Part shown: positions 2,713 through 24,804 of the stretch, in pieces | Layout of the letters: each line of letters begins with the position of its first letter | Position numbering within the stretch: position 1 is the first letter of the stretch | IMG/VR virus record: IMGVR_UViG_3300032272_000065 | Coordinates: 1-25,910 of that record | Length of the DNA stretch: 25,910 nucleotides | Reading direction: 5' to 3' (one strand) | Source of the DNA: a virus | Lineage: Duplodnaviria; Caudoviricetes | Translations under genes and position numbers: made by a program | The notes under the pieces: model-generated | What the model was told of the DNA's origin: nothing | Database searches by the model: none | What the model saw: the letters and a program-made list of their open reading frames with translations, nothing else

Positions 2713-2721
2713 TCATGATGG

Positions 2722-2750: not shown

Positions 2751-2765
2751 CTATAGCGAGGTAAC

Positions 2766-7376: not shown

Positions 7377-7930
7377 TGGTACTAAACGTAGAAGATGCCT
7401 TTGATATTGACTTTGATACACTTGGGTTGGCTAGAAATCCCGCTACCGATGCAACACCAAGCACAACCACGAGTTTTAATTTGAGTTCATTGTTGACAGC
7501 CTCGCAGGGGATAACCTCTCTGGCTAGTATGTATGTAACGTCACAAGCCTCAAAGATTAGGCAGTTGACGTATGAGCATAACGCAATAATGGCCGAACAT
7601 GCTAAATACTGGATTGATAGAGCGGTAGCCGCAGATGTCGCCACGGTAAGAGAACAGGGTCGGCAGATATTAGGCACTGCTAGGGTCGCCGGTGCTTCCT
7701 CTGGATTTGCGCTTGACTCGGTATCACAGCAGAACATAGAATCAGCTACTATCCGTTCAGTTGAGCAAGATGTTGCGGCACTTAAAATAGCTGGGGAGGT
7801 TGAGGCTTTTAATCTGTCCTCCGAGGCTTCGGCCTCTCTGGCTGCCGCTTCTGCCGAAGAAAACAGCAGCAATCTACAGAACATTAGCACACTGTTATCG
7901 ACTACCAAAAACATATTGGATGGGATATAA
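7376..7930 (+). CDS. Internal virion (ejection) protein, gp14-like
   Basis: Ala/Ser-rich helical protein with GRQILGTARVAGASSG motif; follows the nozzle gene. Confidence 0.65.
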   Translation: MVLNVEDAFDIDFDTLGLARNPATDATPSTTTSFNLSSLLTASQGITSLASMYVTSQASKIRQLTYEHNAIMAEHAKYWIDRAVAADVATVREQGRQILGTARVAGASSGFALDSVSQQNIESATIRSVEQDVAALKIAGEVEAFNLSSEASASLAAASAEENSSNLQNISTLLSTTKNILDGI

Positions 7931-8112
7931 TGGCACGAATGAGCAAAGAAGAGCTGGCTGATGTTGGTAAGTGGAGCAATAAGTCTCAAGCCTCTAAAGG
8001 TGGTACTGTGAATCATGTGTTAAGCGATGCCGCGAAAGAAACTTATGAAAATATGAAAAAGTATTGCGGCTGCCCTATGGGACAACGATGCGGGTGTAAA
8101 GAATGCCAGTAA
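7930..8112 (+). CDS. Small protein with Cys-rich C-terminus
   Basis: 60 aa ORF filling the gap exactly, TAATG overlap upstream; ends CGCPMGQRCGCKECQ. Confidence 0.55.
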   Translation: MARMSKEELADVGKWSNKSQASKGGTVNHVLSDAAKETYENMKKYCGCPMGQRCGCKECQ

Positions 8113-9776: not shown

Positions 9777-12700
9777 TGGCAAGGTCAATAGAAGAAATAT
9801 TGGCCGCTGCGGAGCAATTCAGCCAAGAAGAGGATGTTGTAGAGACATCACCTCAAGCTGACGACGGTAGGTTGAGTGGTATTCTTGCCAAGGCCAAACA
9901 GTTTAAGCCGGTTAAAGAGATCCCAGAACTTACAGAGGCTCCTGCCCCTTCCTTATTTTCACAGGCTAAAGAGTTCTTTGCCGATCCTGCAAAAGAAAAG
10001 GCTATTGCTACTCAGGCTATGGTTGATTCGCAGATCTTTGGTATTTCATTATCTGACGCTTACAATAAAAGGTTTGCAATAGACCATGACGCAAAGATAA
10101 CGCCAGAGCGTGCCGCAATCAGAGAAACAGCTTATAGCATCTTCACCAAGAACTACAAGACAGCTAATACAGGCTTGCAGCGAGATTATCTGTATTCTCA
10201 ACAGATATATGATGAAAATCCACAGCGGCAACGTAAAATAGATGAATATAACCAGGCTATGGCAGAAACCGGCGAGATAGGTTTGCCAGAGTCAAGGGTT
10301 CAGGACATCCTTGAAGCTACCGGCAAGACATTACCTTTCATGGTTAACACGGCTTCAAACGGGCAGTGGTTGGGTCTTGCCGCCGGGCTAGGAGGTTTTG
10401 CGCTTGGGACTGCTACGCTAGGGCCAGAGGCAGGGATACCTCTAGGTGTCGAATTTTACGGGGCTGGTGTTACAACTGGCTCGTTGATGTACTCAGCTCA
10501 AGTTATGGCTGGGAGTAATTATCGAGAGTTGCTTGAATTTGAATCAGAGTCAGGCGAGAAAATAAATAAAGGAGTCGCTAAGTTTGGTGCTCTTGCTTCC
10601 GGTTCGTTAATGGGCCTGGTGGAAGTTGCACAGATGAAAACATTGTTTAAATCGTTCGGCGGCGATAAGGCTCTGGCCGGTGTTGTTTCAAAGACACTAG
10701 CCAACCTTTCAGAGAGTGGCGCTGTTACACAGGCTATTGTACGATTCGGTGGTGTGTATGGTACAACTTTGGCTACTGAGACTAAACAGGAAGTACAGCA
10801 AGAAATGATTAAGATAGTCGGCGATGAGTTATCAAAAGTTGCTACAAACTATCTTGACGGGAAAAATATAGAACGTGCCACCACTAAAGATGTTGTCAGC
10901 CAGTTAGCGACGACAATCACCGAGTCTATTAAAGGGCTTGGCCTGGTGTCAGGCCTGGGGCCTGCTGCTAGGTTTGGTGGCGATATAGCTAAAGTATCTA
11001 CAGCCAAGATAGACGCGGCCAGAATAGAAAAGGCTATTGCAGATGAAGTCGAGCAGGAGAAAGTAATTGATGAAGTTGTTACCACAGACGAGGCGACAAC
11101 TGAAGCTGTCAGGGAAGAATTGCAAAGCGTTGTAGATGAAAACGACATTCAAGACTACCAAAATATAGTTGCACAGGCCGGTGTTATAGCAGAAGAAAGA
11201 GTTGACGCTATATTCCAGGCTGACCGAGACGAGATAAACAAGAGGGCTGAAGCCGAAGGGGTAGCAATAGCGGCAGAAGATCCCATACAGCAAGTTATGT
11301 CCAGTGCTGTTGAGCAGGGTGGTATATTGCTTACTGACCAAATACAAGCAGACTATGGAGAGACAATCACAGAGATTATTAAAAAAAGGCCTGGATTATT
11401 CTCTAAAAAAGGCACACTTGTATTAGATGAGATAGCAGTAGATGAGGCTGGGTTTGATACCGAGGCTGACTTTATTAATGCCGTTGCCGAAGTTGCCACC
11501 AAGAAAGATACAGTAGCTAAGTTGTCACCAGAACTTGCAGCGGAAGAACTTGGGGCAGTGGACCAATTTGAGGAAGAGTTTAGGCAAGAGGTTTTATTGC
11601 AAGAAGAAACCAAGGCTATTTCTGAGCTATTGGCTACAGAAAAACCAGAGTTAAGGGCGGAACTTGACAAGATCGTTGCCAGCATACCTTCTGGGGTATC
11701 TGTTAGTGCAATAGAACGAAAGCAATTAACTGAAGCATTCGCTGAAGCAAAGGCAGCTCAACGTAGTGGCGATGATGCGGTATTCCAGGAGGCCAAAGAT
11801 AAAATTGCTGGTTTAGTTGACAAGTTCAAAGTTGATTCTCGCGCAATACCTGAATCTTCCTATCAAGAGAATCGAGAAGCGGTTGAACCAACCATTCTAG
11901 CTACTGCCACCAGAGATGCGAAGGATATAGTTAAACAAATAGGTAAGGGTGTTGACAGGTATCTTGGCTCTATCTCTACAAGGCTTGCTAATATCAGTCC
12001 CAAGTTAAAATATGTATTAAGGGAGTTTGAATTCCAGGTAGGTGTAAAAGAAGCTGAAATGGTCAGAGCGTCAGAGCCGTTCTTTGCCAAAGTGCAGAAG
12101 ATGGAAAAGGGCGATATGGCCGACTTTGACCTTGCCCGTAAGAACGCCGATACAACCAAGATAAACGAGTTGCTAGATAAATATGAAATGGCAACAGAGT
12201 ATGCGGCTGTTCGGGAAGTGTTAAATAAATTGCATGCAGATGCTGTTAGTGTCGGATTTGATATAGGTTTTATTGAAGAGTTTAACCCCAGATACATAAC
12301 TGACATGAAGGGGTTTTTAGAGCATTTCCAAAAGGGTGATGATTGGTCAGTAATAAGTGATGCTATTAGAGGAAAAGAGGCAGAGCTAGGCCATTACTTA
12401 GATTTCCAAGAGAAAGCACAGTTTATTAACTCCATGCTTCGGGGGTATGGTCAAGGGAATATAACGTTATCCAAACCGAGCGTATTAAAAGAGCGGAAGA
12501 TAGACACGATTACCCCAGAGTTAAATAAATTCTATTCAACCTCAGAAGCGGCTTTATTAAACTATATCCACGAAACCAACTCAGCAATTGAGGCCAGAAG
12601 GTTCTTTGGCAAGAAAGCAAAGCCTGAGAACGTTGGGGAAAATGACGATACAATAGGGTCATTCGTTTTAGACCTTATTCAGAGTGGCGAGATTAAGGCG

Positions 12701-13750
12701 CACCAAGAAAAAGACCTGTCTGACATACTCAAGGCTAGGTTTAATGAAGTGGGTACTACCGGCGTTCTGGGGCTATACAAGAACCTGTCATATATTGATA
12801 CTATGGGGTCGGTTGCTTCGGCTGTTACTCAAATAGGTGATATCGCATGGTCATTGTATCAGAATGGCGTTGCTTATACCGCTGATGGAGTGATTAAAGC
12901 ATCAACCGGAAAGTCAGCTATTACCAGAGAAGATATTGGCGTTGAGAGAATAGCCGCTGAATTTGCGGATCAGACAAAGGCGGCCAAGGCAGTATCAAAA
13001 GTATTTAAGATTATTGGCCTTGAGAAGATGGACGCTATAGGAAAAGAGACTTTGCTTCATGCGTCATGGACTAAGTTTAAAAATAGAGCCAAGCGCAGCC
13101 CTGCAAAACTACGGAAAGAATTGCAGCCAATCTTCGGCGATAGGACAGACCAGTTAATGACTGACCTCGAAGAAGGTACTATCACCGAAGATGTTAAGCT
13201 GTTGATGTTTAACAAGCTGGCTGACTTCCAGCCCATAACATTGTCAGAAATGCCTCAAAAGTATTTAACCGGTGGTAACGGACGTATATTTTACATGCTG
13301 AAGACTTTCACGATAAAATCATTTGATATTTACCGGCGTGAAGTATTCCAGCAGATAGCGAATAAAGATACTAGGGCCCAGGGGATCACTAATCTAGTCC
13401 GTCTTGCTTCTTATTTTGTATTCGCTAATGCTACTGCTGATGTGATTAAGGCTATTATCCTAAACAGACCAATAGAGCCAGATGATTTGGCGGTTGATAA
13501 TCTCCTTAGGCTTTTCGGTATATCTAAGTTTGTTACATGGAAAGCAAGAGAGGAGGGCTTAGGTGTTGCAGCTCGTGGGCAGATATTCCCACCAACTAAG
13601 CTTATAAACGCACTAAGTAAAGATATTAATACCGCTGGTGATGAAAAGGGACTTGAGACAGTATCGTCAATTCCGGTCTTTGGTAAATTATATTATTGGT
13701 GGTTTGGGAAAGGCAAAAAGAAGTCCGACAGAAGGAGAAATAAAAAATGA
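9776..13750 (+). CDS. Large internal virion (ejection) protein, gp16-like
   Basis: ~1324 aa with a Gly-rich hydrophobic segment near the N-terminus; TGATG coupling; precedes the tail fibre. Confidence 0.75.
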   Translation: MARSIEEILAAAEQFSQEEDVVETSPQADDGRLSGILAKAKQFKPVKEIPELTEAPAPSLFSQAKEFFADPAKEKAIATQAMVDSQIFGISLSDAYNKRFAIDHDAKITPERAAIRETAYSIFTKNYKTANTGLQRDYLYSQQIYDENPQRQRKIDEYNQAMAETGEIGLPESRVQDILEATGKTLPFMVNTASNGQWLGLAAGLGGFALGTATLGPEAGIPLGVEFYGAGVTTGSLMYSAQVMAGSNYRELLEFESESGEKINKGVAKFGALASGSLMGLVEVAQMKTLFKSFGGDKALAGVVSKTLANLSESGAVTQAIVRFGGVYGTTLATETKQEVQQEMIKIVGDELSKVATNYLDGKNIERATTKDVVSQLATTITESIKGLGLVSGLGPAARFGGDIAKVSTAKIDAARIEKAIADEVEQEKVIDEVVTTDEATTEAVREELQSVVDENDIQDYQNIVAQAGVIAEERVDAIFQADRDEINKRAEAEGVAIAAEDPIQQVMSSAVEQGGILLTDQIQADYGETITEIIKKRPGLFSKKGTLVLDEIAVDEAGFDTEADFINAVAEVATKKDTVAKLSPELAAEELGAVDQFEEEFRQEVLLQEETKAISELLATEKPELRAELDKIVASIPSGVSVSAIERKQLTEAFAEAKAAQRSGDDAVFQEAKDKIAGLVDKFKVDSRAIPESSYQENREAVEPTILATATRDAKDIVKQIGKGVDRYLGSISTRLANISPKLKYVLREFEFQVGVKEAEMVRASEPFFAKVQKMEKGDMADFDLARKNADTTKINELLDKYEMATEYAAVREVLNKLHADAVSVGFDIGFIEEFNPRYITDMKGFLEHFQKGDDWSVISDAIRGKEAELGHYLDFQEKAQFINSMLRGYGQGNITLSKPSVLKERKIDTITPELNKFYSTSEAALLNYIHETNSAIEARRFFGKKAKPENVGENDDTIGSFVLDLIQSGEIKAHQEKDLSDILKARFNEVGTTGVLGLYKNLSYIDTMGSVASAVTQIGDIAWSLYQNGVAYTADGVIKASTGKSAITREDIGVERIAAEFADQTKAAKAVSKVFKIIGLEKMDAIGKETLLHASWTKFKNRAKRSPAKLRKELQPIFGDRTDQLMTDLEEGTITEDVKLLMFNKLADFQPITLSEMPQKYLTGGNGRIFYMLKTFTIKSFDIYRREVFQQIANKDTRAQGITNLVRLASYFVFANATADVIKAIILNRPIEPDDLAVDNLLRLFGISKFVTWKAREEGLGVAARGQIFPPTKLINALSKDINTAGDEKGLETVSSIPVFGKLYYWWFGKGKKKSDRRRNKK

Positions 13751-14760
13751 CAGTACCAAGCGAAGCGAATCCGGTTCAATCATGGGACGGTGATGATGTA
13801 ACGGTTGCTTTCTCAATATCAACCTATTCATTCCTTGCGGTTACTGATATTACAGTGGCTCGTACCGATACTGACGGAACTAGCACCACATTAACGAAAG
13901 ATGCAGCCGGTGAGGATGGTTACACCTTGTCAGGGACAACCATTACTATGAACACGGCTCCCGCTACAGGCGAGGAGTTGGTTGCAACCAGAGATACTAC
14001 CAGAACACAGCTACTTGATTTGGTCAATAATAGGTCAAGCAACCCTGATAATCTGGAAACGGCTCTTGACCGGTTAACGTACATAACGCAGGAAAACAAC
14101 TACAACAGCGTTAGCCAAGCTGTTCGGGCTGATAGTTCGGTAACAGATACACCAGATTTAACATTTGCTGGCACAGCGGCGTATAGGGCTGACAGATATA
14201 TTGGTTTTGATAGCTCTGGTGATATCGCGTTATTGGCGGCATTGGCCGGGTCGGCACTTCTTGACGAAGATAACATGGCCAGCGATTCTAACACCCAGGG
14301 GGCAACGCAGCAGAGCATCAAGGCTTATGCTGACGCTATTACAGCTGCGATGACAGCTCGATACCCAGCGGGGATGATATGCCTTTGGTCTGGGGCTATT
14401 TCAGATATCCCAGCGGGGTTTGCTTTATGTGACGGGTCAAACGGCACTCCACCTCTAACAGACCGCTTTATACTACATGCTGATGCTGATACCGGTGGCA
14501 CTAACGATGTTGGAGATACAGGGACAGGTGCAGGTACATCTGAAGATTACACATTAGAGATAGGGGATATCCCAAACCATTCACATTCAACCCCTGGCAA
14601 TATTGGTACTGGTTCTGGTATTTCTTCTGGTGCTGACTTTGCAGGGAATGCTTCTTTAACCTCTGGAGCTTCTGGTGGTGGTGGGGCTCATGCCCATGGG
14701 ATAAATAACGCTAACTACAAACCTAAATATTATGCACTTGCATATATAATGAAACTATAG
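13747..14760 (+). CDS. Tail fibre protein (T7 gp17-like anchor plus collar domain)
   Basis: GDDVTVAFSI...F, LETALDRLT anchor; collar motif PAGMICLWSG...IPAGFALCDGSNGTPPLTDRF; ends PKYYALAYIMKL. Confidence 0.88.
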   Translation: MTVPSEANPVQSWDGDDVTVAFSISTYSFLAVTDITVARTDTDGTSTTLTKDAAGEDGYTLSGTTITMNTAPATGEELVATRDTTRTQLLDLVNNRSSNPDNLETALDRLTYITQENNYNSVSQAVRADSSVTDTPDLTFAGTAAYRADRYIGFDSSGDIALLAALAGSALLDEDNMASDSNTQGATQQSIKAYADAITAAMTARYPAGMICLWSGAISDIPAGFALCDGSNGTPPLTDRFILHADADTGGTNDVGDTGTGAGTSEDYTLEIGDIPNHSHSTPGNIGTGSGISSGADFAGNASLTSGASGGGGAHAHGINNANYKPKYYALAYIMKL

Positions 14761-14767
14761 GTGTATT

Positions 14768-15394
14768 ATGAAACGGATATTATTTACAGTATTGTTACTG
14801 GCATTTACGACAAACGTATGTTTAGCAGATGATAGAAACTCCACTCAATTCAAGAGGGATCCCACAACTGGTAGTATTGCGTCAGTTGACTATCCACATC
14901 TAGAGATACACTCTGGCAGTGCGTATAATGTTCATGATTATGACCTCACATTGGCAGCTGATGAAAACCTTAATGTATGCTTCACTACTCCAGACACCTC
15001 CAAGTGGTTCCATTTAACTGTTGGTTATTCATGCTCTTTGGCGTGTACTGCTCAAATATTATCTGGGTCAACTGTAACCGCTAATTCAGGTACAGAAACC
15101 GCTCCAATGAATCACAATGGTAACTCTTCTAAAACCAGCACCGCCTATGATTTGCAGACTGTTCCGGTAATAAACAGTGTTAGTATAGGAGCGACCATCA
15201 CAGTTGATGGTACTGAATTACATGGAGAAGTAATAGGGGCCGCAAAGTCACAAGGTGGAACCGTTGGTGGTGGAGAAAGGCACGAGTATATACTGGAACA
15301 GGGGGTTACACATTGCATCAGATTGTTGCGGGATTCCACTGTAGGTAATTCTATAAGCTCGTTAGAGGTTAACTGGTATGAACACACCAACTAG
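14768..15394 (+). CDS. Hypothetical beta-rich protein with signal-peptide-like N-terminus (paralog 1)
   Basis: MKRILFTVLLLAFTTNVCLA leader; similar along its length to the next ORF; ends YEHTN. Confidence 0.75.
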   Translation: MKRILFTVLLLAFTTNVCLADDRNSTQFKRDPTTGSIASVDYPHLEIHSGSAYNVHDYDLTLAADENLNVCFTTPDTSKWFHLTVGYSCSLACTAQILSGSTVTANSGTETAPMNHNGNSSKTSTAYDLQTVPVINSVSIGATITVDGTELHGEVIGAAKSQGGTVGGGERHEYILEQGVTHCIRLLRDSTVGNSISSLEVNWYEHTN

Positions 15395-15401
15395 ACATAT
15401 T

Positions 15402-16010
15402 ATGAAAATTAAATTACTGCTACTCATACTGCTATTTGCAACACCATGTTTTGCCGGTGACAGGAACCACACCCAATTTGGGAAAGACACTAGCACCGGT
15501 TCGATTTTAGCTATTGGCTATGCTCACCATGAGATACATGAGGGTAACTCTTTTGTTGCAGGTTCGTCCGGTATTCTTGCTAACGAGGCATCCTTAAAAA
15601 TATCATTCAGGACACCAGACACGGATAAATGGTCTCACTTTAATTACGCGGCTGCTTGTTCATTAGACGCTACATTAACATTTACTGAGAATCCTACTGT
15701 TACCGTTAATACCGGATCTGCGCTCCCGATATACAATAACAATAGAAATTCAACCAATACATCTATTTTACTTGGATCTTCTACCGGTGTGTACGTTGCT
15801 AACAGCTTAACATTGGGAGCAACAATGTCAGGTGGTACATCCATAAAGCCTGTGGTACATCTAGGAAGTGGCAAGAAAACTGGTGGTGGTGCTAGTTCTT
15901 TCACTGAAGCTGTTCTAAAACAGAACGAAGATTACTCGGTTGTGCTGACTAGCGAGGCCGCAGATAACCATTGTTTTCTTGAGATATATGAATATGAACA
16001 TACAAACTGA
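15402..16010 (+). CDS. Hypothetical beta-rich protein with signal-peptide-like N-terminus (paralog 2)
   Basis: MKIKLLLLILLFATPCFA leader; start set at 15402 by alignment with paralog 1; ends YEHTN. Confidence 0.75.
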   Translation: MKIKLLLLILLFATPCFAGDRNHTQFGKDTSTGSILAIGYAHHEIHEGNSFVAGSSGILANEASLKISFRTPDTDKWSHFNYAAACSLDATLTFTENPTVTVNTGSALPIYNNNRNSTNTSILLGSSTGVYVANSLTLGATMSGGTSIKPVVHLGSGKKTGGGASSFTEAVLKQNEDYSVVLTSEAADNHCFLEIYEYEHTN

Positions 16011-16018
16011 GGTGTAAC

Positions 16019-16285
16019 ATGGCTGGCCCTGGTGACAACTTTAAGAAAGATGACCAATACTACCCGTATTCTCACGGAGACTTACAGGTACGCCTCGCTT
16101 ATGATGCGAATGGGAATGTTGAGTATGTAGGGTACGGTTTACCTGGAGCGTTAGATAGTGATGAAAAATGGCAGATCGAGAAGTTTACGTACACTTCTGG
16201 CAAGATTGTAAGTGGTAAATATGCTGGCGGTTCTAATATATACGACAAGGAATGGGATGAAAGAGCATCTTATTCATATAGTTAA
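16019..16285 (+). CDS. Small tail-module protein with a YD-like motif
   Basis: YDANGNVEYVG...WQIEK...WDERASYSY; GAGGTG RBS. Confidence 0.7.
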   Translation: MAGPGDNFKKDDQYYPYSHGDLQVRLAYDANGNVEYVGYGLPGALDSDEKWQIEKFTYTSGKIVSGKYAGGSNIYDKEWDERASYSYS

Positions 16286-16294
16286 GGTGGTATA

Positions 16295-17074
16295 ATGGAT
16301 AAAGCTATTTTTGATCCACTATTAAAATCGTTAAAAACTGACGGTGGTTTGTCTAGCTTGATAACCTCAAGTCGTGGCATTAATGAGGTGGGCAGCGTAG
16401 GCACTGATACTGTTATTGATTGGGCTAATGGTGGGGTTCAGATTATCACCGTTACTGCCGTTATCAATATCACATTTACAGGATGGGACACGTTAATAGC
16501 TGACGGTGAAGCTCAGTCCGGCACATTAATTATCATTGACTCAGGCGACTGGAACCCAACATGGTCAACGCTGCTTCAGACCGAGGGCGAAGCAGATTTT
16601 ACCTACACGGCAGACAAGGCAATTGTGCTTGAGTTCCTTAATGTCGAAGGTGGCGACTATGTGCCTTATGGCGGTTGGCAGGTTGCAGCCGATACTTATT
16701 TGACATTAGGCACCGAGCTTGTTGATGATCCTAGCTTCGATGATACCGCAGATTGGACTGAATCTGGTAACATGTCAGTTACGGGCGGCCAGTTAGTCTT
16801 AACCGCTGCAACGTCAGAGACTACGGTGGAAGCCGCACCATTAACCGCTGTAGCCACAGCATCATATCTAGTCGTTACCGTGATAGACGAGGTGACAACG
16901 GCTGGCGGTGGTGTTAAGATGAACGTAGGCAGTACAGACGGGGCCACATATACAACGGTAGGCACGAAAGCCGAGGTTATTGTGGCCACTGATACTGACG
17001 GCCTTGAGATAATCGCAGCAGGGGCCGCAATGACGGCTAAAATTGGCTCGGTATCAGTGAAGAGGTTATACTAA
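16295..17074 (+). CDS. Putative tail fibre/spike accessory protein with a carbohydrate-binding-like C-terminal domain
   Basis: IDWANGGVQ..T motif and LGTELVDDPSFDDTADW motif; Thr/Gly/Val-rich. Confidence 0.6.
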   Translation: MDKAIFDPLLKSLKTDGGLSSLITSSRGINEVGSVGTDTVIDWANGGVQIITVTAVINITFTGWDTLIADGEAQSGTLIIIDSGDWNPTWSTLLQTEGEADFTYTADKAIVLEFLNVEGGDYVPYGGWQVAADTYLTLGTELVDDPSFDDTADWTESGNMSVTGGQLVLTAATSETTVEAAPLTAVATASYLVVTVIDEVTTAGGGVKMNVGSTDGATYTTVGTKAEVIVATDTDGLEIIAAGAAMTAKIGSVSVKRLY

Positions 17075-17601
17075 TGCCTGATTACGGTAAATTTAAAGAT
17101 GATGTTCTGGTTGAGGAAATAACTTTCACTCGCAAATTTGTGCCGGTCGGTGGCCGTAAAGCATCAAACCACTCGCCACAATGGATGAAGAAGCACGGCT
17201 ATGTCCCATATATTAAGCCAACTGTCTTGGATGGTGAGTATGAAGGGGTTGAAAATATACCAACAAAGGAAAACAGTGTCATAGTATCTTACACTCACGC
17301 CATAAAGACCAAGGATTATTCGACTATAAGGGCTGAGATAACTAGTGCAATAGAATCAAAAGCATACGCCCTTGTTTCTTCAGTGAATAGCTCTATTATC
17401 GATACAGCAGCAAAAACAAAAGTGAACGATTTAGTATCCTCTAAGTGCAAAGGGCTGTTGCTTGAACTTGCAGAAACTACCGATATCAACCTTAAATATT
17501 TCGATTACACATCGACATGGGATGGTATAGAAGACTTTGGGACAATAGACCTTACTGAAAGCACATGGACAAAACTTAAACGTTATATGTTCGGGGTTTA
17601 A
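17074..17601 (+). CDS. Hypothetical protein, possibly tail fibre assembly
   Basis: 175 aa, translationally coupled, lies between fibre-like genes. Confidence 0.6.
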   Translation: MPDYGKFKDDVLVEEITFTRKFVPVGGRKASNHSPQWMKKHGYVPYIKPTVLDGEYEGVENIPTKENSVIVSYTHAIKTKDYSTIRAEITSAIESKAYALVSSVNSSIIDTAAKTKVNDLVSSKCKGLLLELAETTDINLKYFDYTSTWDGIEDFGTIDLTESTWTKLKRYMFGV

Positions 17602-18279
17602 ATGTTACATCATGCAATGCGGAGAGTCGTGGCTGGTGCTGGATCTGATGAGTTTACAGTGCTGCACGTTCCATCTAATACTACAGATGGAGACACTACG
17701 TTTATAGATACATCTCCATCTAACCACACAATAACCCCGAATGGTGCATTTGCACACAAGACAGCGCAATCTTATTCAGGAGCATCTAGCTACTTATCTG
17801 CCGCTAGTACGTCATACGGTACTATGACTGATAGTTTAACTGACTTCGTTTTAGGGGATACATTTTTCATAAACTTCCAAGTCTATTTTAATGTTGCTAC
17901 GGGTAATCAATACTTTATAGGGTATGGTGGAGGATATGCTGGATGGCGTGGCACTGACGGTCATGTATTCACTGTTTTTAAACTTGGAACAAATATATTC
18001 TATTTCCAATTTTGGAACGGATCAGCAATACGATCAATCTCGTTTTCGTGGACTCCTTCAGCTAGTCAATGGTACAATATAGAAATTTCCTGTAATAATG
18101 GGGCATTTTCTATAGATATTGATACTGTGGAAAAAGTTACTTCGTCAGGGGTAAGTGTATCTGACGTAACAACACCATTAAGGCTTGCTATGTGTAGCCT
18201 TGCTAATTTAGGAACAACAGCAAACAACTTTTATATGGATAATCTTATCATTAGAAAAGGGATTTCAACAGGGCTTTAA
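17602..18279 (+). CDS. LamG/concanavalin A-like lectin domain protein (putative receptor binding)
   Basis: DGDTTFIDTSPSNHTIT, DFVLG..F.I.F.VY, QWYNI, and YMDNLIIRKG motifs. Confidence 0.75.
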   Translation: MLHHAMRRVVAGAGSDEFTVLHVPSNTTDGDTTFIDTSPSNHTITPNGAFAHKTAQSYSGASSYLSAASTSYGTMTDSLTDFVLGDTFFINFQVYFNVATGNQYFIGYGGGYAGWRGTDGHVFTVFKLGTNIFYFQFWNGSAIRSISFSWTPSASQWYNIEISCNNGAFSIDIDTVEKVTSSGVSVSDVTTPLRLAMCSLANLGTTANNFYMDNLIIRKGISTGL

Positions 18280-18325
18280 AAGTTTATAGCTAAATATATA
18301 ATTAATCAATGATCCGGTGGGTTGA

Positions 18326-18613
18326 ATGGCAGAATGTGACGGTTGTGTAAAGAGTGGGCACAGGTTATTAGTTCAAGTAGTCATGGGATCTATATTCGTT
18401 CTCGCTGTAAGCGGTATCTTGTCATGGAAATCAGCTTTTGCGAAGGATGACCGTGATGACAAACAAGAGCAAATGATAGCAGTAATGCAGACAACACTGA
18501 CCCAATACGTCAAGAATTCAGAAGAAACCCGTTCTGACATTAAGGAGCTGGCACAAATTACCATGCAGATGAACCTCAATCTACAAACTCACATCGCGGC
18601 GACAAGTAAATGA
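18326..18613 (+). CDS. Membrane protein with one TM segment and a coiled coil (holin/antiholin-like)
   Basis: Hydrophobic LLVQVVMGSIFVLAVSGILSW; lies directly upstream of the endolysin. Confidence 0.6.
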   Translation: MAECDGCVKSGHRLLVQVVMGSIFVLAVSGILSWKSAFAKDDRDDKQEQMIAVMQTTLTQYVKNSEETRSDIKELAQITMQMNLNLQTHIAATSK

Positions 18614-18945
18614 GCCTCAGAGAGAACCAAAGCCGTTTCGCGTTAAATGTTGCGTTCCTAATTCTTGAAGCGGAGAAACTAGGCTACGAGGTGACGCTAG
18701 GTGACTCTTTCAGAGACCCTAGGGTTTTCGGTAAGGTTGGAGAGAAGAAAGGTTATAGCCACAAGAACAGCACTCATAAATCACGCCTTGCCATTGACCT
18801 TAACCTTTTTAAAGACGGTCGATATATTACTGATTCAGAAGGGCATGACAAGTTACATGACTTCTGGGTCGATAAATGCGGTGGTTCTCCGATGATTAAA
18901 GGTGATCCGAACCACTATTCATACAAGCATAATGGGGTATCATAA
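18610..18945 (+). CDS. Endolysin, peptidase M15 family
   Basis: GYEVTLGDSFRDP, S.HKSRLAIDLNLFKDG (H-x6-D) and DPNHYS zinc-ligand motifs. Confidence 0.88.
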   Translation: MSLRENQSRFALNVAFLILEAEKLGYEVTLGDSFRDPRVFGKVGEKKGYSHKNSTHKSRLAIDLNLFKDGRYITDSEGHDKLHDFWVDKCGGSPMIKGDPNHYSYKHNGVS

Positions 18946-19448
18946 TGGGTATAGATCTAACTGGGATTTCAGGTGTAACAGATTTAGCTGGTGGGATTAT
19001 GGATCGCTTCTGGCCTAAGAAGATGGACGAAGGTGAAAAGGCATCGGCTAAACTTGGCATGATATCCATGATTAAAGGGTTTCAAGCTAAAAGTGACGAG
19101 GCAAAAAAAAGTGTAATGGTTGCCGAGTTGAATCAAGGTGATGTTTACACTAAACGAGCGAGGCCGACAATTGTCTATGGCGGTTTAGCTATAATATTCA
19201 TTAACCATGTAATATTCCCAATGTTTGCATGGTGCGTTGGTGTGGCTACTGTTCTATTTGCTGGGACAATAACTCCAGAGTTGACCAATGCCCTAGTGTT
19301 GCCTTCTTTCTCTCTCCCTGCCGCGTTTTGGGCATCATGGACAGGAGTTACAGGTGTTTATTCTATTGGAAGGTCAATGGAGAAACGTGGCGTTACTGGC
19401 ATGGGCGGGAAAATAGCCAGTATGATTACCGGCAATAAACAACCTTAA
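18945..19448 (+). CDS. Holin, 3TM/GTA-holin-like family
   Basis: AELNQGDVYTKRARP, hydrophobic segments, GVYSIGRSMEK; follows the endolysin. Confidence 0.8.
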   Translation: MGIDLTGISGVTDLAGGIMDRFWPKKMDEGEKASAKLGMISMIKGFQAKSDEAKKSVMVAELNQGDVYTKRARPTIVYGGLAIIFINHVIFPMFAWCVGVATVLFAGTITPELTNALVLPSFSLPAAFWASWTGVTGVYSIGRSMEKRGVTGMGGKIASMITGNKQP

Positions 19449-19450: not shown

Positions 19451-19484
19451 AAAAAAGGCCGGGGCAATTCAAACCCCGGCCTTT
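19451..19484. terminator. Bidirectional intrinsic terminator between the convergent late and early modules
   Basis: AAAGGCCGGGG-caattcaaa-CCCCGGCCTTT perfect 11 bp stem; the A6 run gives a U tract on the - strand. Confidence 0.9.
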
Positions 19485-19527: not shown

Positions 19528-19866
19528 TTAACTCCAATCAGATAAAACCTTTCCTATCTGGCCACATATCCATTTAGCAAACCTTGTAGCAGACCAACCG
19601 TTGCGCCACTTCTCATTATTTAGGTACACGTTTACCTTGCCGCTGCCATTATTAATTTCATGCTTAATCTCAATATGGTTGCGTTGCTCAGTTATTGGGT
19701 TGTATGTATTCACCACGAAAAGCAGGGTAGTTTCTACCGATCTTTCCGGGCCGAATTTAAGCGCATTGGATAATCGGCCAATTTCTGACCGCCTCTGTGA
19801 CTCAATGCCTCCTAACCTACCACGGTTACGCTTCTTTTCGTATGTCGCATAATTAGGGTAACTCAT
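19528..19866 (-). CDS. Hypothetical basic protein
   Basis: 112 aa ORF, last gene before the terminator on -; no tyrosine recombinase motifs seen. Confidence 0.7.
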   Translation of the reverse strand: MSYPNYATYEKKRNRGRLGGIESQRRSEIGRLSNALKFGPERSVETTLLFVVNTYNPITEQRNHIEIKHEINNGSGKVNVYLNNEKWRNGWSATRFAKWICGQIGKVLSDWS

Positions 19867-19873: not shown

Positions 19874-19892
19874 AGTTAACAAGTAGTTATGT
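19874..19892 (+). other. attI-like simple site
   Basis: AGTTAAC-aagta-GTTATGT: inverted L and R boxes with a 5 bp spacer and no attC hairpin, at the 5' end of the attC array. Confidence 0.65.
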
Positions 19893-19894
19893 GT

Positions 19895-20104
19895 TCAGTC
19901 TGCTATAAATTCCCAGGTGTCATCACCGCACTGTACGGTATTAGGTTTTAGGGTGTTGCCTCTTATTCTCTGTACCCCATCCCTGTCGCCACATATTTTC
20001 TCCGCTTTCCTCAATTGGTGGGGGGTTATATCAGTGCAGCCCACACATAACAAAAAAATCAAGCAGATTGCCAGAACGGGTGCGAGTTTAGTTAATTTTC
20101 TCAT
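19895..20104 (-). CDS. Small lipoprotein (cassette 1)
   Basis: Signal peptide with lipobox LCVGC; AGGAG RBS inside attC1. Confidence 0.8.
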   Translation of the reverse strand: MRKLTKLAPVLAICLIFLLCVGCTDITPHQLRKAEKICGDRDGVQRIRGNTLKPNTVQCGDDTWEFIAD

Positions 20105-20168
20105 GTCAATTACTCCTGTGTTTAAGTGCCGCCACCATCTGGCAACGGCTTATTATAGGTCGTTAAAT
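20045..20168 (+). other. attC-like site 1 (124 bp)
   Basis: ACATAAC-5-AATCAAGC...TTGCCAGA / TCTGGCAA...GCTTATT-7-GTTAAAT; near-identical to site 8. Confidence 0.88.
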
Positions 20169-20396
20169 GCCTGTTTCAAAGAAACTTGTTTTCCCGCATT
20201 GCCAGCAATGGGCAGTATAAAATTTTACAGACCAGTGTTTCTCGTCAGGTTCTTCTCGGTCATAAAATACTTCAAACTTCTCAACACTTCTCGAAAGCAC
20301 ACTATCCACGGCGCAGTGCTGGCATTTAACCAGCGTATCAACGCGGACTTCGTCCACGGTTGCGGGTTGCGTCATTATTACTTTTTTAACGTCCAT
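20163..20396 (-). CDS. Small zinc-ribbon-like protein (cassette 2)
   Basis: CQHC and CWQC motifs; GGGGTG upstream of the ATG at 20396 (alternative start 20417); stop overlaps the GTTA core. Confidence 0.7.
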   Translation of the reverse strand: MDVKKVIMTQPATVDEVRVDTLVKCQHCAVDSVLSRSVEKFEVFYDREEPDEKHWSVKFYTAHCWQCGKTSFFETGI

Positions 20397-20455
20397 TTTT
20401 ATCACCCCATCACACATAGCTTGTCACCCCTCGCCGGTTATCCTTAATGTTAAAT
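20324..20455 (+). other. attC-like site 2 (132 bp)
   Basis: ATTTAAC-5-TATCAACGCGG ... CCGGTTATC-6-GTTAAAT. Confidence 0.78.
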
Positions 20456-20464
20456 GCCGCCAAA

Positions 20465-20704
20465 TTATTGTTTCATTTCAGCTAACATACCCCGTAAAAC
20501 TTCCACGCTGCCTCTCAACCATTCAGGAGTAGTCTTGTTATTTTCAAGCCTCTCCAGAATTACGGTAGTCAAAGTGGTTGCCATAAATAATTTGTTGGCA
20601 TTTAACCCGTCAATTAAGCGGGAATTACTGGCTTGGTGTTCATCTAAACACACAGCACACACAGCTACGTTAGCTTCTCTTAATTTACATATTGGGCAAA
20701 TCAT
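20465..20704 (-). CDS. Small protein with N-terminal CxxC...CxxC (cassette 3)
   Basis: MICPICK...VCAVC; GGGGA RBS before the ATG at 20704; the longer track ORF overlaps the next gene. Confidence 0.7.
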   Translation of the reverse strand: MICPICKLREANVAVCAVCLDEHQASNSRLIDGLNANKLFMATTLTTVILERLENNKTTPEWLRGSVEVLRGMLAEMKQ

Positions 20705-20732
20705 CGTAATCCCCTTATTGCTATCGTTATAA
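20600..20732 (+). other. attC-like site 3 (133 bp)
   Basis: ATTTAAC-5-AATTAAGCGGGAATTAC ... GTAATCCCCTTATT-6-GTTATAA. Confidence 0.85.
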
Positions 20733-20906
20733 ACCTGCCAAATTATCAAGGTTAACCAAAACCTCCATCTCCTTGTTGTCCTTGTCTGCAACGCATATCC
20801 CAACATCTTCATCAAGATAAATTTCGCAGTTATATTCTTCCAGCAAGGCTAATATTTTCTCGGTAAATTCGTCAACATCTCGCCATCCCTCAACTCTTCT
20901 TTTCAT
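20727..20906 (-). CDS. Small acidic hypothetical protein (cassette 4)
   Basis: MKRRVEGW...; AAGGTG upstream of the ATG at 20906; stop overlaps the GTTA core. Confidence 0.65.
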   Translation of the reverse strand: MKRRVEGWRDVDEFTEKILALLEEYNCEIYLDEDVGICVADKDNKEMEVLVNLDNLAGL

Positions 20907-20929
20907 CCTAATCACCTTCCCGTATGGGT

Positions 20930-21015
20930 TTATAACAAAATAATTAATCTGAGCCGTACAAGTAAGCGGCCTGCGGTATTTCTCCGTGGCGGCCAGCTTA
21001 TTATCGGCGTTATAA
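20930..21015 (+). other. attC-like site 4 (86 bp)
   Basis: TTATAAC-5-AATTAATCTGAGCCG ... CGGCCAGCTTATT-6-GTTATAA. Confidence 0.83.
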
Positions 21016-21040
21016 ACCCGTTCTAACAGGTTGGGCAGGG

Positions 21041-21619
21041 CTAGTTCGTTTTGTTGGCCCATTGCTCAACAATCGCCTTTGCCACACCGTCAAACGTTTT
21101 ACTCCTGTCCCGTTTCCGGGTTTCGCTTGGGGGCATCTTCCACACTCGCTGTTCTCTACCGTCCACAATGTTTGTCGGCTTCAGTGGCTCCAAGTTGTGC
21201 AGAGCAAATCCGGTCTTTTTAGTTTCTCCGTGTCCATGCTCCCACGGTTGCAGATAAAAAACGTTCGGCAAGTGGCTAAATATTACGCTCACGGGGTTTT
21301 CAAGCGCCACCCTGTCACTGTGCAGTACAGCCAGTTCCCAAAGCCGCTTAGTCCATTCTACTTGTGCCAGCCGCTTGTCGTTCATCGGCATCCCTTTTCC
21401 GTACCACCTGTTTCCACTCACAGCCATTGCGGTGCAGTCAGGGTGCAATATTATCAAATCCCAATATCTGGATGGCACTACCTGCATTATGTCCTGTTGC
21501 AAGTGCCATTCTGGGTTTCCCCTTGTCGGCTCAAGGTCACAGCTAAAAGCCTCGTGTTCTGCTTCCCGCAATGCTTTTGTAATTGTCTGGCTCTCTTCAC
21601 ACCCGACTAAAACAATCAC
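21041..21619 (-). CDS. Short phage DNA cytosine methyltransferase-like protein (cassette 5)
   Basis: VLVGCEES, SCDL, WDLIILHPDCT, ALENP, QPWEHGHGETKKT and RSKTF.GVA.AI..QW motifs. Confidence 0.8.
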   Translation of the reverse strand: MIVLVGCEESQTITKALREAEHEAFSCDLEPTRGNPEWHLQQDIMQVVPSRYWDLIILHPDCTAMAVSGNRWYGKGMPMNDKRLAQVEWTKRLWELAVLHSDRVALENPVSVIFSHLPNVFYLQPWEHGHGETKKTGFALHNLEPLKPTNIVDGREQRVWKMPPSETRKRDRSKTFDGVAKAIVEQWANKTN

Positions 21620-21936
21620 TCTTCCAGCCCCATCAGCAAAGAAAATTCATACCTGATCTTTCTAGTCCTTTCTTTAATCCCATCATTGTACGAAGCGTGG
21701 CAGAGATAAATACAAGCCTCTATATCCTCATTTGTCCAATGTGATGGCACACCCATCAGAAGCTCCCCTTTTTTGGGGCAATTAAAATGTTTTCTTGATT
21801 CATCGCTAATCCCTAGATATACCCCATCAATATCACCAAGGTGCTTAGACTTTTCTCTGGTTATCCCCAGATCACTAATCATTTTCAATCCGTACTCTTT
21901 AACTCTCTTTATAAAAAGACCGTTAGTTTTAATCAT
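21616..21936 (-). CDS. Hypothetical protein (cassette 5)
   Basis: AAGGAGG RBS before the ATG at 21936 (MIKTNGLF...); GTGA overlap with the methyltransferase start. Confidence 0.75.
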   Translation of the reverse strand: MIKTNGLFIKRVKEYGLKMISDLGITREKSKHLGDIDGVYLGISDESRKHFNCPKKGELLMGVPSHWTNEDIEACIYLCHASYNDGIKERTRKIRYEFSLLMGLEE

Positions 21937-21991
21937 GCTGTCCTCCTTTAAAGCATATGTATTACTGTTCAATTGCCCGTTAACCTTCGGT

Positions 21992-22078
21992 TTATAACAA
22001 ACAAAATCACTCTGACCGCAAGAACGGTTGCGGCCCCACTTTAGTTCGGTGGGCGGCAGGTGTTTTGCGGCGTTATGT
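21992..22078 (+). other. attC-like site 5 (87 bp)
   Basis: TTATAAC-5-AAATCACTCTGACCGC ... GCGGCAGGTGTTT-6-GTTATGT. Confidence 0.83.
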
Positions 22079-22270
22079 TTCTTCCAAATAATCAGGGTGG
22101 ATATCTTCTGTATTACATTCAATGTCCATATCCTCACCCATTATATCGGCAAGTCCATCAGCAGTATGGTACGTCAAAGGTACACACACAGGTTCGTCTT
22201 TAAGTATGTCAATTACACGAAACTGTCCGTCACAGTAATCAGGCTCTATTCTATATCTTTTTATTTTCAT
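22073..22270 (-). CDS. Small acidic hypothetical protein (cassette 6)
   Basis: AAGGAGGT RBS; stop overlaps the GTTA core. Confidence 0.8.
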   Translation of the reverse strand: MKIKRYRIEPDYCDGQFRVIDILKDEPVCVPLTYHTADGLADIMGEDMDIECNTEDIHPDYLEET

Positions 22271-22283
22271 AATACCTCCTTAA

Positions 22284-22340
22284 ACATAACCAAAAATTCA
22301 AGCGGACGTAAGACACGCCGCTTAATATAGCACGTTATGT
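22284..22340 (+). other. attC-like site 6 (57 bp, minimal 59-be type)
   Basis: ACATAAC-caaaa-ATTCAAGCGGACGT-aagac-ACGCCGCTTAAT-7-GTTATGT; unpaired C and A on top give extrahelical G and T on the bottom strand, as in canonical attC. Confidence 0.92.
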
Positions 22341-22610
22341 TTAAATCTTTTTCCAACCGACAACTTCAATGTTATCTAATTTGTCCAGATCAATATCAAC
22401 ATTTTGCTTGCATGTCGGTTGGCATAATAACCAGCCGTTTTCTCCATCTGGAGGCCAACATACATATTGCCATTCAATACCTTCTCGTTCTTTGCATAAA
22501 ACAAGCACTTGGTCGTCTATATCGTCAGGGATATTCTTAGGGTCAAGCCAACATAACCCGCCGCTTAACGCTGAATTGCTAATGGTTGCGGTTTTAGTTT
22601 CTTCGGTCAT
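22341..22610 (-). CDS. Small hypothetical protein (cassette 7)
   Basis: 89 aa; GGAG and ATG inside attC7; W...P....QVLV...W..V.GW pattern. Confidence 0.75.
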   Translation of the reverse strand: MTEETKTATISNSALSGGLCWLDPKNIPDDIDDQVLVLCKEREGIEWQYVCWPPDGENGWLLCQPTCKQNVDIDLDKLDNIEVVGWKKI

Positions 22611-22680
22611 AGCATCATCTCCAGTTGTTTTATTAATTATCAGTCGCTAACCCGCAATCAGGTTAGCTATTTCGTTATGT
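22551..22680 (+). other. attC-like site 7 (130 bp)
   Basis: ACATAAC-5-GCTTAACGCTGAATTGC ... GCAATCAGGTTAGC-6-GTTATGT. Confidence 0.87.
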
Positions 22681-22682
22681 TC

Positions 22683-22985
22683 TTACCGTTTTTTCCTTCT
22701 TACGGTAGCCGTTCCGCTGCTTGATGATAGCGCACCAACTCCAATGGCAAAGCCAAAGTCATACCACCCACCGTTATTATATATGGCATAAATTGCGGTG
22801 CTATCCGAAAACAGTGATACAAGCCAAGAGAATGGTAAAATCATTCCATGCCACAAACCATACCAAAATCCTACTGGCTGTATAGTTGCGGCACTGTTAA
22901 ATGTGGCGTGGTCGGCGCAGCCAGAACATAACAAAAAAATAAAGCAGATTGCCAGAACGGGTGCGGTTTTAATCATTGCTTTCAT
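22683..22985 (-). CDS. Membrane-associated lipoprotein (cassette 8)
   Basis: Lipobox LCSGC; hydrophobic GFWYGLWHG...NNGGWYDFGF domain; AGGAG RBS inside attC8. Confidence 0.85.
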   Translation of the reverse strand: MKAMIKTAPVLAICFIFLLCSGCADHATFNSAATIQPVGFWYGLWHGMILPFSWLVSLFSDSTAIYAIYNNGGWYDFGFAIGVGALSSSSGTATVRRKKR

Positions 22986-23047
22986 GTCAATTTCTCCTGT
23001 GTTTAGGTGCCACCACCATCTGGCAACGGCTTATTAAATCGTTATGT
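22926..23047 (+). other. attC-like site 8 (122 bp)
   Basis: ACATAAC-5-AATAAAGC...TTGCCAGA / TCTGGCAA..GCTTATT-5-GTTATGT; near-copy of site 1. Confidence 0.88.
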
Positions 23048-23245
23048 TCTAAAAAGGATGCGATTGTCTGGAGCATATTTCGGCTCAGATCGTTCTCGCT
23101 CCATTGGTATTTCTTTACCGTGCGGCTCTTTCGGTGTTGCCCCGCAGCTGGTGCATGTTGGTGTTGGTGGGTAAATTCCTCCCCAGTTACTTGGCACCAT
23201 CACGGCACCGCCACATAATGAGCATGTTCCAATAGTAGTATCCAT
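23042..23245 (-). CDS. Small zinc-ribbon protein (cassette 9)
   Basis: CSLCGG...CTSCGA; AAGGAG RBS; stop overlaps the GTTA core. Confidence 0.8.
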   Translation of the reverse strand: MDTTIGTCSLCGGAVMVPSNWGGIYPPTPTCTSCGATPKEPHGKEIPMERERSEPKYAPDNRILFRT

Positions 23246-23266
23246 CTTTCGAGTCTCCTTTTTAAA

Positions 23267-23359
23267 ACATAACCAGCCTAATTAAAGCAGACGGCTAGAA
23301 GTTTTGCGGCCCATAAGGGGATTTCCTTTTGGGGCCGCTGTTTATTAGCAATGTTGGGC
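23267..23359 (+). other. attC-like site 9 (93 bp)
   Basis: ACATAAC-5-TAATTAAAGCAGACGGC ... GCCGCTGTTTATTA-5-GTTGGGC. Confidence 0.85.
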
Positions 23360-23386
23360 TGCACATACAGTCACAGCCCGTCAGGT

Positions 23387-23674
23387 TTAAACTTCTGCCC
23401 TATCCAGCACGTTGTTTATGCGGTCAATGGAGTTCTCAATAGTCTCCAGTTTCTCCCGCATTTCACTAAACAGTGGGGGGTATTCTCTGGCAACCTTGTC
23501 GCAGCCATCAGGAGATGGGCAGGCAGATTGACATATTGGGTGCAGTTTATCGGCAGTCCTGCAAGCTACCTTCTCTGCTGCGCTGGCAAGTCTGTCTAGG
23601 GCGTTCATAACCTCACGTGCTATCGGGTCTTGTGCGGGTGCTACACATGCTTTACCACTATTACAGTCATCCAT
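23387..23674 (-). CDS. Helical-hairpin/coiled-coil hypothetical protein (cassette 10)
   Basis: 95 aa; GGAGG RBS. Confidence 0.8.
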   Translation of the reverse strand: MDDCNSGKACVAPAQDPIAREVMNALDRLASAAEKVACRTADKLHPICQSACPSPDGCDKVAREYPPLFSEMREKLETIENSIDRINNVLDRAEV

Positions 23675-23700
23675 CTTAAATATCCTCCGTTAAATTAAAA

Positions 23701-23787
23701 GCCCAACCAGTCTAATTAACTCAGACAGGGAGAACTCATGCGGCCTCACCACCATTGGTGGCCCGCTGGTTATTAGTTTTGTTAAAA
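23701..23787 (+). other. attC-like site 10 (87 bp)
   Basis: GCCCAAC-cagt-CTAATTAACTCAGACAGGG ... CCCGCTGGTTATTAG-tttt-GTTAAAA. Confidence 0.85.
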
Positions 23788-23796
23788 AACGCGGAT

Positions 23797-24027
23797 TTAT
23801 TTTTCTATCTGTATGCCATCCCTCAATATATCTTCGGCTAACCAACCGTGGTACTTCCCAGCATCATGTTTTTCAGTATCGGCAATTATCAGTTCAGCTG
23901 TTAGTATTTCGTCTTTTTCAAACATTTTACCCGGCAAAAAACCGATCACCATTGTCACATCCTGTCCGTCTATTGACTTTCTCGGCCCAACATATAGTTT
24001 GGCTGGTATTGGTAAATATTCGTTCAT
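23797..24027 (-). CDS. Small hypothetical protein (cassette 11)
   Basis: 76 aa; GGAGGT RBS. Confidence 0.8.
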   Translation of the reverse strand: MNEYLPIPAKLYVGPRKSIDGQDVTMVIGFLPGKMFEKDEILTAELIIADTEKHDAGKYHGWLAEDILRDGIQIEK

Positions 24028-24052
24028 ATTAGTACCTCCGTGGCGCTATGTT

Positions 24053-24110
24053 TTTTAACCAAAAATTCAAGCGGACGTGTACCACGCACGCTTAATATCG
24101 GTCGTTATGC
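24053..24110 (+). other. attC-like site 11 (58 bp, minimal type)
   Basis: TTTTAAC-caaaa-ATTCAAGCGGACGTG...CACGCACGCTTAAT-7-GTTATGC; related to site 6. Confidence 0.9.
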
Positions 24111-24112
24111 CG

Positions 24113-24355
24113 CTAAAATTTATCTGATTTTCCTGTAAATGGCGTTGTGTATCTAATTCCTATGTTCCCAAAACCATCAACATCACGGCAGACCATGTGC
24201 CATCCAACAATAGGCTCGGTTATATACTCTTCGGCAGTCATTACCTTATGTGCGGCATAACCAGTAAATTCAGGCGAAAAGCTAACGCTTGCGGCCTTGC
24301 TACATTCCGCGCATACAACTCGTCCGTTCATATAATCTTCGCATTGGCAACTCAT
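24113..24355 (-). CDS. Small protein with Cys-rich N-terminus (cassette 12)
   Basis: MSCQC...VCAEC; same GGGGATTACGATG start context as cassette 3. Confidence 0.7.
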   Translation of the reverse strand: MSCQCEDYMNGRVVCAECSKAASVSFSPEFTGYAAHKVMTAEEYITEPIVGWHMVCRDVDGFGNIGIRYTTPFTGKSDKF

Positions 24356-24383
24356 CGTAATCCCCTTATCTCAATCGTTCAAT
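24255..24383 (+). other. attC-like site 12 (129 bp, degenerate/chimeric, terminal)
   Basis: GCATAAC-5-AATTCAGG ... CCTTATC-6-GTTCAAT; right arm shares TCATCGTAATCCCCTTAT with site 3; inner arms pair poorly. Confidence 0.65.
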
Positions 24384-24804
24384 CTTCGGGAAACAACAAT
24401 TCAACCCGCCCAACATAATGTAATTGCATCGCCTCAAGACCACGAGCAAGCTGCTTAGTTTTCATCAAAGATGTTACTGGCAGGATCTCCATAGCCTTGA
24501 TCTTACTCTCGTATGGCAAAGGGTCAATCACGGCCTCACATGTGGCGTTAAACTCCGCATCCTCACCTCTTAGTATTGGCAAAAAGATATGCAGCTTACA
24601 GAGGCATTTTACCCCGTTGTCGGTGTATTCCATTTCCTCTAGTGCTACCTGTGTGCACCACGCATGTAAGAGCGCGTTCTGGTTAAGTGTTCGCGCCTTG
24701 CCAGTGCTTATGGTCACGGTTACGAACTTCTTTTCCTTGAACGCCTTTTTAAGCTGACCGATACACTCTGACAATGTGCGGGTGCTATTTACTTTAAGCT
24801 TCAT
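24379..24804 (-). CDS. ninB: NinB-like recombination accessory protein
   Basis: RTLNQNALLHAW motif, PILR and VTSLM.TKQL...LE pattern; 141 aa. Confidence 0.65.
   Translation of the reverse strand: MKLKVNSTRTLSECIGQLKKAFKEKKFVTVTISTGKARTLNQNALLHAWCTQVALEEMEYTDNGVKCLCKLHIFLPILRGEDAEFNATCEAVIDPLPYESKIKAMEILPVTSLMKTKQLARGLEAMQLHYVGRVELLFPED

Follow-up and report, generated by a model that had tools for sequence, protein, structure and literature searches.

Integrons are taught as bacterial devices, with a strand rule that points cassette genes away from the insertion site. The array described here lies on a phage contig, IMG/VR virus record IMGVR_UViG_3300032272_000065, where 12 apparent integron-type cassettes stand between a ninB-like gene and a 112-aa open reading frame (ORF112); the window analysed is the entire contig (25,910 nt; 25.9 kb), a partial phage genome. 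With bacterial cassettes and their attC sites, as described in the available parts of PMC5027507 and PMC5371416, the array shares the R''-L''-loop-L'-R' architecture, the extra L'' base, the G|TT crossover and complementary ends of equal length, and its sites are 57–133 nt long against a published range of about 57–141 nt (PMC5371416). It differs in that its genes lie on the attC bottom strand. Cassette arrays in phages are already published: the accessible portions of PMC9892861 report 17 phage attC clusters that have no integron integrase (CALINs) and five phage attC sites that recombine with IntI1. Like those, the present array is an attC cluster without intI in a phage and has methyltransferase cargo, but it is longer, and inverted polarity is not discussed in those accessible portions, figures aside. 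By the CALIN definition in the available part of PMC4889954 (at least two attC sites and no nearby intI), 12 sites and no intI in 25.9 kb place the array in this class. Inverted-integrase integrons of the Spirochaetota type (10.1101/2022.02.06.479319 and PMC13323075, from the sections available) resemble related phage integrons in that intI is co-directional with the cassette genes; in that type the element flipped relative to attC is intI, whereas in the phage loci intI and attC face each other in the usual way and it is the cassette genes that are turned round. No publication on inverted phage cassette polarity was found in the literature searched, mostly without subscription papers, and comparison with other loci supports the view that the inverted-polarity form is probably new. 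The reading we prefer, and consider quite likely, is that the phage carries an array of 12 integron-type cassettes whose attC hairpins are canonical and whose genes lie on the bottom strand, and that an integron integrase likely built it by inserting circles one by one at G|TT between ninB and ORF112.

Polarity, not end pairing, is the unusual feature of the array. All 12 sites have the canonical layout (R'', 5 nt, L'' with its extra base, then L', 5 to 7 nt and R'), and for each of the 12 the better score is obtained when the left arm bears the extra L'' base, which makes plus the top strand. L-box pairing scores 7/7 in six sites and is weakest in attC2 and attC12. At its right end the array closes with a full hairpin, while the left end has none. 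All 13 cassette genes lie on the minus strand, which is the attC bottom strand, contrary to the bacterial rule of a top-strand gene upstream of attC. Ribosome-site-plus-ATG motifs in the array number 16 on the bottom strand and 0 on the top, and the two annotated cassette proteins are both encoded on minus. In six cassettes (1, 2, 3, 7, 8 and 12) the gene starts within the hairpin loop, and in cassettes 1 and 8 the hairpin arm encodes a predicted lipoprotein signal peptide (motif judged by eye). The likeness between attC1 and attC8 extends leftwards into the genes and ends just after GTT; therefore the hairpin travels with the inverted gene. A rule of an in-frame Asn at the crossover was tried and rejected, because no array gene reads through it: four stops overlap the crossover AAC and eight fall 7–34 nt short. 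The parts of the array are as follows.

19874..19892, plus: left end of the array, AAC, 5-nt spacer, G|TT, with the crossover after 19886; may be an attI-like or a secondary site of insertion; upstream attC hairpin absent.
19887..20162, plus: cassette 1, 276 nt; attC1 at 20045–20168; minus-strand gene 19895–20104 (69 aa, predicted lipoprotein), ribosome site and start within the attC loop.
20163..20449, plus: cassette 2, 287 nt; attC2 at 20324–20455, weak stem; minus-strand gene 20163–20396 or 20163–20417, start within attC, stop overlapping the crossover AAC.
20450..20726, plus: cassette 3, 277 nt; attC3 at 20600–20732; minus-strand gene 20465–20704 (79 aa), start within attC.
20727..21009, plus: cassette 4, 283 nt; attC4 at 20930–21015; minus-strand gene 20727–20906 (59 aa).
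21010..22072, plus: cassette 5, 1063 nt; attC5 at 21992–22078; two minus-strand genes, 21616–21936 (106 aa, no assigned function) and 21041–21619 (192 aa, phrog_757, DNA methyltransferase-like).
22073..22334, plus: cassette 6, 262 nt; attC6 at 22284–22340 (57 nt, canonical L boxes); minus-strand gene 22073–22270 (65 aa).
22335..22674, plus: cassette 7, 340 nt; attC7 at 22551–22680; minus-strand gene 22341–22610 (89 aa), start within attC.
22675..23041, plus: cassette 8, 367 nt; attC8 at 22926–23047; minus-strand gene 22683–22985 (100 aa, predicted lipoprotein, phrog_30702), the attC arm encoding the signal peptide.
23042..23353, plus: cassette 9, 312 nt; attC9 at 23267–23359; minus-strand gene 23042–23245 (67 aa).
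23354..23781, plus: cassette 10, 428 nt; attC10 at 23701–23787; minus-strand gene 23387–23674 (95 aa).
23782..24104, plus: cassette 11, 323 nt; attC11 at 24053–24110 (58 nt); minus-strand gene 23797–24027 (76 aa).
24105..24377, plus: cassette 12, 273 nt; attC12 at 24255–24383, weak stem; minus-strand gene 24113–24355 (80 aa), start within attC; the final crossover overlaps the ninB stop codon.

Could these be ordinary bacterial cassettes put in backwards by rare top-strand recombination? Such recombination exists (1,000–10,000-fold rarer, according to the available text of PMC5027507), but backwards insertion would keep each gene on the strand that bears the extra L'' base, and here the two are on opposite strands in 12/12 cassettes. 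The crossovers map to R', and the cargo looks like that of phages: 37 viral relatives are known for the cassette 8 gene, while no cassette protein has a match in the 80 prokaryotic integrase loci of the survey below. We regard backwards insertion as extremely unlikely.

The sequence-only reading of the window had singled out the complementarity of the two ends of every cassette, and here its observations stood up well. The left G positions are 19886, 20162, 20449, 20726, 21009, 22072, 22334, 22674, 23041, 23353, 23781 and 24104, with a last G at 24377, and the right AAC ends are 20051, 20330, 20606, 20936, 21998, 22290, 22557, 22932, 23273, 23707, 24059 and 24261. The perfect runs of end pairing in cassettes 1–12 are 9, 10, 10, 10, 10, 9, 8, 10, 8, 8, 10 and 10 nt; all 12 core pairs lie where that reading had put them and are complementary over 8–10 nt; R'' and R' pair with 0 mismatches over 7 nt in 12/12 cassettes. 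When the partners were permuted, the observed sum of 112 compared with a mean of 64.5, and 0 of 200,000 permutations scored as high. Of 405 AAC triplets outside the array, a single one is preceded at 150–450 nt by a GTT with a run of at least 8. In sites 1, 3, 5, 9, 10, 11 and 12 the AAC core matches the upstream GTT perfectly, but the GTT of its own site, downstream, over just 3–5 nt, again as claimed; the junctions of sites 2, 4, 6, 7 and 8 cannot discriminate because neighbours carry the same core. Circularised in silico, the rebuilt bottom strands are predicted to fold better than the sites in the array in 8/12 cases, equally well in 4/12 and worse in 0/12, with the R box in register at a predicted pairing probability of 0.75–0.99 in 11/12 and 0.51 in attC2.

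The same reading had called this pattern the footprint of integration events in an array spanning 19886 to 24261. The pattern does fit a circle opened at G|TT, and related viral arrays gain and lose cassettes there, although it cannot date the events or prove current activity; the true right end of the array is 24383. What that reading had left out is the inversion of all genes relative to attC. R''/R' complementarity is a defining property of attC sites in the available text of PMC5027507, and the mean run of 9.33 nt here compares with 9.45 in 42 prokaryotic cassettes (p = 0.78) and with 9.25 in the 91 viral ones (the comparison cassettes were chosen for runs of at least 6, which raises their means). 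Since it is published and no longer than in bacterial cassettes, end complementarity is ordinary integron anatomy, already known and not surprising or important alone, and unusually long core pairing was rejected as a special trait. End pairing is moreover symmetric and therefore silent on polarity, which must come from the L boxes and the array ends.

Two further patterns were seen at the cassette ends. Pairing continues beyond 10 nt in cassettes 1, 3, 5 and 9 (19886–19925 with 20012–20051, 20449–20469 with 20586–20606, 21009–21048 with 21959–21998, and 23041–23058 with 23256–23273). At positions 11–40 this extension gave p = 0.003 for this array; as a general rule it was rejected, failing in 42 prokaryotic (p = 0.99) and 78 viral cassettes (p = 0.82). 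Sharing of a core by neighbours (cassettes 2-3, 4-5 and 6-7-8-9; 20162–23047) is also above chance here (p = 0.001); it was absent from 30 prokaryotic and 22 viral junctions of other arrays.

To place the polarity in context, integrase loci were surveyed with a purpose-written attC/cassette detector, which at the threshold used recovers 9 of the 12 window sites and found 0 cassettes in 410 kb of shuffled DNA and 380 kb of other phage DNA. The integrase query was an alignment of 24 of 120 listed IntI homologs. For prokaryotes, the 80 top-ranked of 601 genome loci were taken (scan of 1 of 64 database parts), and for viruses the 80 top-ranked of 579 loci (scan of 42 of 64 parts); ranking by a phage query may bias the viral sample. 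Cassettes were found in 13 of these prokaryotic loci (38 on the top strand, 4 on the bottom) and in 35 of the viral ones (67 bottom, 24 top; by majority, 25 loci bottom, 6 top and 4 tied). By open reading frame (ORF) call, 67/91 viral and 4/42 prokaryotic cassettes are thus inverted (Fisher p = 1e-12, from counts that are non-independent). Ribosome-site-plus-ATG motifs, counted independently, numbered 91 on the bottom strand and 5 on the top among 84 distinct viral cassette bodies; among 42 prokaryotic ones the top strand had 23 and the bottom 14. Clustering at 90% puts the integrases of the 30 viral loci that were labelled inverted into 27 groups, and in 30/30 intI lies downstream of the cassette genes and co-directional with them. 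On a quick tree of 78 of the 145 extracted integrases (no bootstrap or one-clade test) the inverted loci need seven changes, at least three of them forced by strong branches; the inverted viral integrases are probably not one clade. When 26 inverted loci were checked with 50 proteins, virion genes appeared in nine and a second, prophage-type integrase in nine others. The prophage-type integrase lies within about 3 kb of intI in L142, L146, L158, L163, L181, L186, L188, L196 and L206 (L numbers denote our loci), which suggests that in temperate phages the integrase arm is often where inverted arrays sit. Among the phages of PMC9892861, the detector scored TJE1 as canonical (2/2 sites) and MW202573 as having one inverted site, at 3676. 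Two simpler searches, with exact attC patterns in viral contigs and with a single IntI sequence in genomes, returned no match.

The survey also bears on the possibility that the hairpins are not integron sites, but attC look-alikes among the repeated elements between phage genes (terminators, or repeats that act in translation or promote recombination). That six sites hold ribosome sites and starts, with protein-coding loops, would suit such repeats. The canonical R''/L''/L'/R' layout with the extra base in 12/12 sites would not, nor would end pairing that is specific to each cassette, the same layout beside intact IntI genes elsewhere, or the silence of the detector on shuffled and other phage DNA. 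Mimicry of this kind seems to us very improbable.

In related viral arrays, sequence comparison shows that inverted cassettes do move, and at the canonical junction. Loci L196 and L198 have flanks more than 99% alike and identical IntI, yet whole inverted cassettes differ, the switch falling just after the bottom-strand AAC. Three related phages, L038, L040 and L041, have an intact IntI and attI in common and carry different cassettes (L038 IntI matches TIGR02249 at 307.8 bits, cutoff 265). Several parts of the window recur in such loci: the cassette 8 gene lies within inverted cassettes of L001 and L004 (the only two of its 37 viral relatives within detected arrays), a homolog of the methyltransferase-like gene of cassette 5 occupies the cassette nearest to attI in L163, and L186 has a site 82% like attC6. 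In GenBank phages, the cassette 8 gene was the sole part of the array to find a match. One sediment sequencing run, probably the source sample, was also examined, with loose ends and pieces seen only among those listed. Other contigs of that run share attC11 but have a different bottom-strand gene start, and their likeness to the window ends just after the last GTT. A bulk count of homology boundaries said little: of its 108 ends, 91 were not near a site, since most matches were confined to genes or intI, while 14 fell at the R' AAC and 3 at R''. Two relatives by holin, L042 and L043, have no array.

These observations have to be weighed against a frozen block, that is, an inverted array that came from another phage in a single event of homologous or illegitimate recombination, with no integrase having acted on this genome. 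The lack of intI in the contig and of any variant allele of the locus is what a frozen block would give; neighbour core sharing could mean that blocks moved together, and PMC9892861, in its accessible part, proposes such routes for phage arrays. Yet the outer boundaries fall exactly on G|TT and removal of the array leaves a tidy ninB-ORF112 junction, end pairing perfect over 7 nt in all 12 cassettes indicates little decay, and contigs of the same run change partners at these very junctions. A single capture is in our view unlikely, though less so than the two alternatives above.

Several results count against stepwise insertion of inverted cassettes, the reading we prefer. The contig has no integron integrase (tblastn with a phage IntI over the 25.9 kb gave a best E of 10), the search for relatives turned up neither a different allele of this locus nor an empty one, and the sediment run held no circle and no skipped-cassette or deletion joint for this array, rare circles being beyond the reach of the mapping. 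The stems of attC2 and attC12 are weak. Exact AAC-N5-GTT spacing, as at the left end, occurs in 0/35 attI-side junctions, so that this site fits no attI family clearly, and the pattern arises 10 times by chance in bases 1–19500. Finally, the ORF caller assigned the top strand to 24/91 viral cassettes, and a few viral loci (L161, L166 and L205) look canonical.

The surroundings of the array are those of a podovirus-like phage. Bbp16/Bbp19 Pfam matches on contig proteins suggest a resemblance to BPP-1-like podoviruses. Minus-strand genes, the NinB-like gene included, start at 19528 and continue onward. The flanking features are:

233..19448, plus: virion and lysis genes, namely major capsid (PF20911), tail proteins, internal virion protein, endolysin and holin.
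19454..19484, minus: terminator-like hairpin between the convergent early and lysis arms (consensus match only).
19528..19866, minus: ORF112, 112-aa orphan directly downstream of the array, in the position of intI in related phages; no integrase.
24379..24804, minus: phage early gene, NinB-like, which in the sense of transcription lies immediately upstream of the array.

Searches with ORF112 turned up no viral relative and, in metagenomes, the window's own record alone; an Rfam search gave 0 matches. With the array excised in silico, ninB and ORF112 are 21 nt apart. The left site has the look of a simple site, with 5/7 symmetry, and could be an attI or a secondary GWT site. Like the secondary attG/GWT insertion sites in the available text of 10.1101/2022.09.11.507474, it has the GWT consensus and lacks both a hairpin and a nearby integrase; the difference is that 12 cassettes are present here at one place inside a phage operon, and the site could equally be a true attI. 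Promoter-like matches number 9, versus 12.8 in shuffles, and are not above chance; the direction of the genes makes a Pc promoter irrelevant. In one contig of the sediment run, the left end of cassette 5 (21009–21047) is joined to non-attC sequence that ends in 16 letters similar to the left insertion site of the window, and this junction is possibly a second example of the same target.

We propose that each circle would consist of an attC and the gene following it on the bottom strand. Cutting of the folded bottom strand at AAC would split R' and leave the cassette ends complementary, the integrase being supplied in trans by the host, another phage or the missing part of the genome. The phage early transcript would read ninB and then cassettes 12 to 1, and the newest cassette would therefore be read last, not first. 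Each attC would serve as a 5' leader that in six cassettes supplies the ribosome site, the start codon and the first codons. More speculatively, the recombining strand would be the non-template strand and, if replication runs with transcription, the lagging-strand template, which would favour folding; bottom strands of attC on the lagging-strand template fold more readily according to the available part of PMC5371416.

The strand rule of attC is thus kept here with the genes flipped, in phages and across several integrase lineages. The occurrence of this layout in many integrase-carrying viral contigs is a likely sign of a separate phage pool of swappable genes. If so, phages would shuffle their own accessory early genes by site-specific recombination, and surveys that assume gene and attC on one strand would mis-assign such cassettes. 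A bolder idea, which we put forward tentatively and think somewhat more apt to be wrong than right, is that phages run their own mirror-image integron system, with a separate cassette pool, integrases captured several times, and attC placed before ordinary phage genes so that its arm becomes a leader or even a signal peptide. Genes like that of cassette 8, with and without attC, would then be natural before-and-after states of cassette creation, and such pairs would be material to test the first making of cassettes. Its relatives with and without attC fit both creation from phage genes and cassette decay.

L001 (215–305) and L002 (5950–6050) share a gene start and hydrophobic codons of attC-arm origin, and L002, without the hairpin, has the look of a cassette that was domesticated or is yet to be made. 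One viral IntI that accompanies an inverted array falls, on the quick tree, close to the IntI of a Thiobacillus metagenome-assembled genome (L130/L047), possibly through recent capture of a host IntI by a phage. In the GenBank phage Rctr41k (KX853513.1, 4680–10100; L044), an IntI-like gene annotated xerD has attC-like sites and co-directional genes downstream, with polarity ambiguous at several sites. L004 contains the same cassette end twice (1–118 and 1402–1519, 99%), as either a duplicated cassette or an assembly circle.

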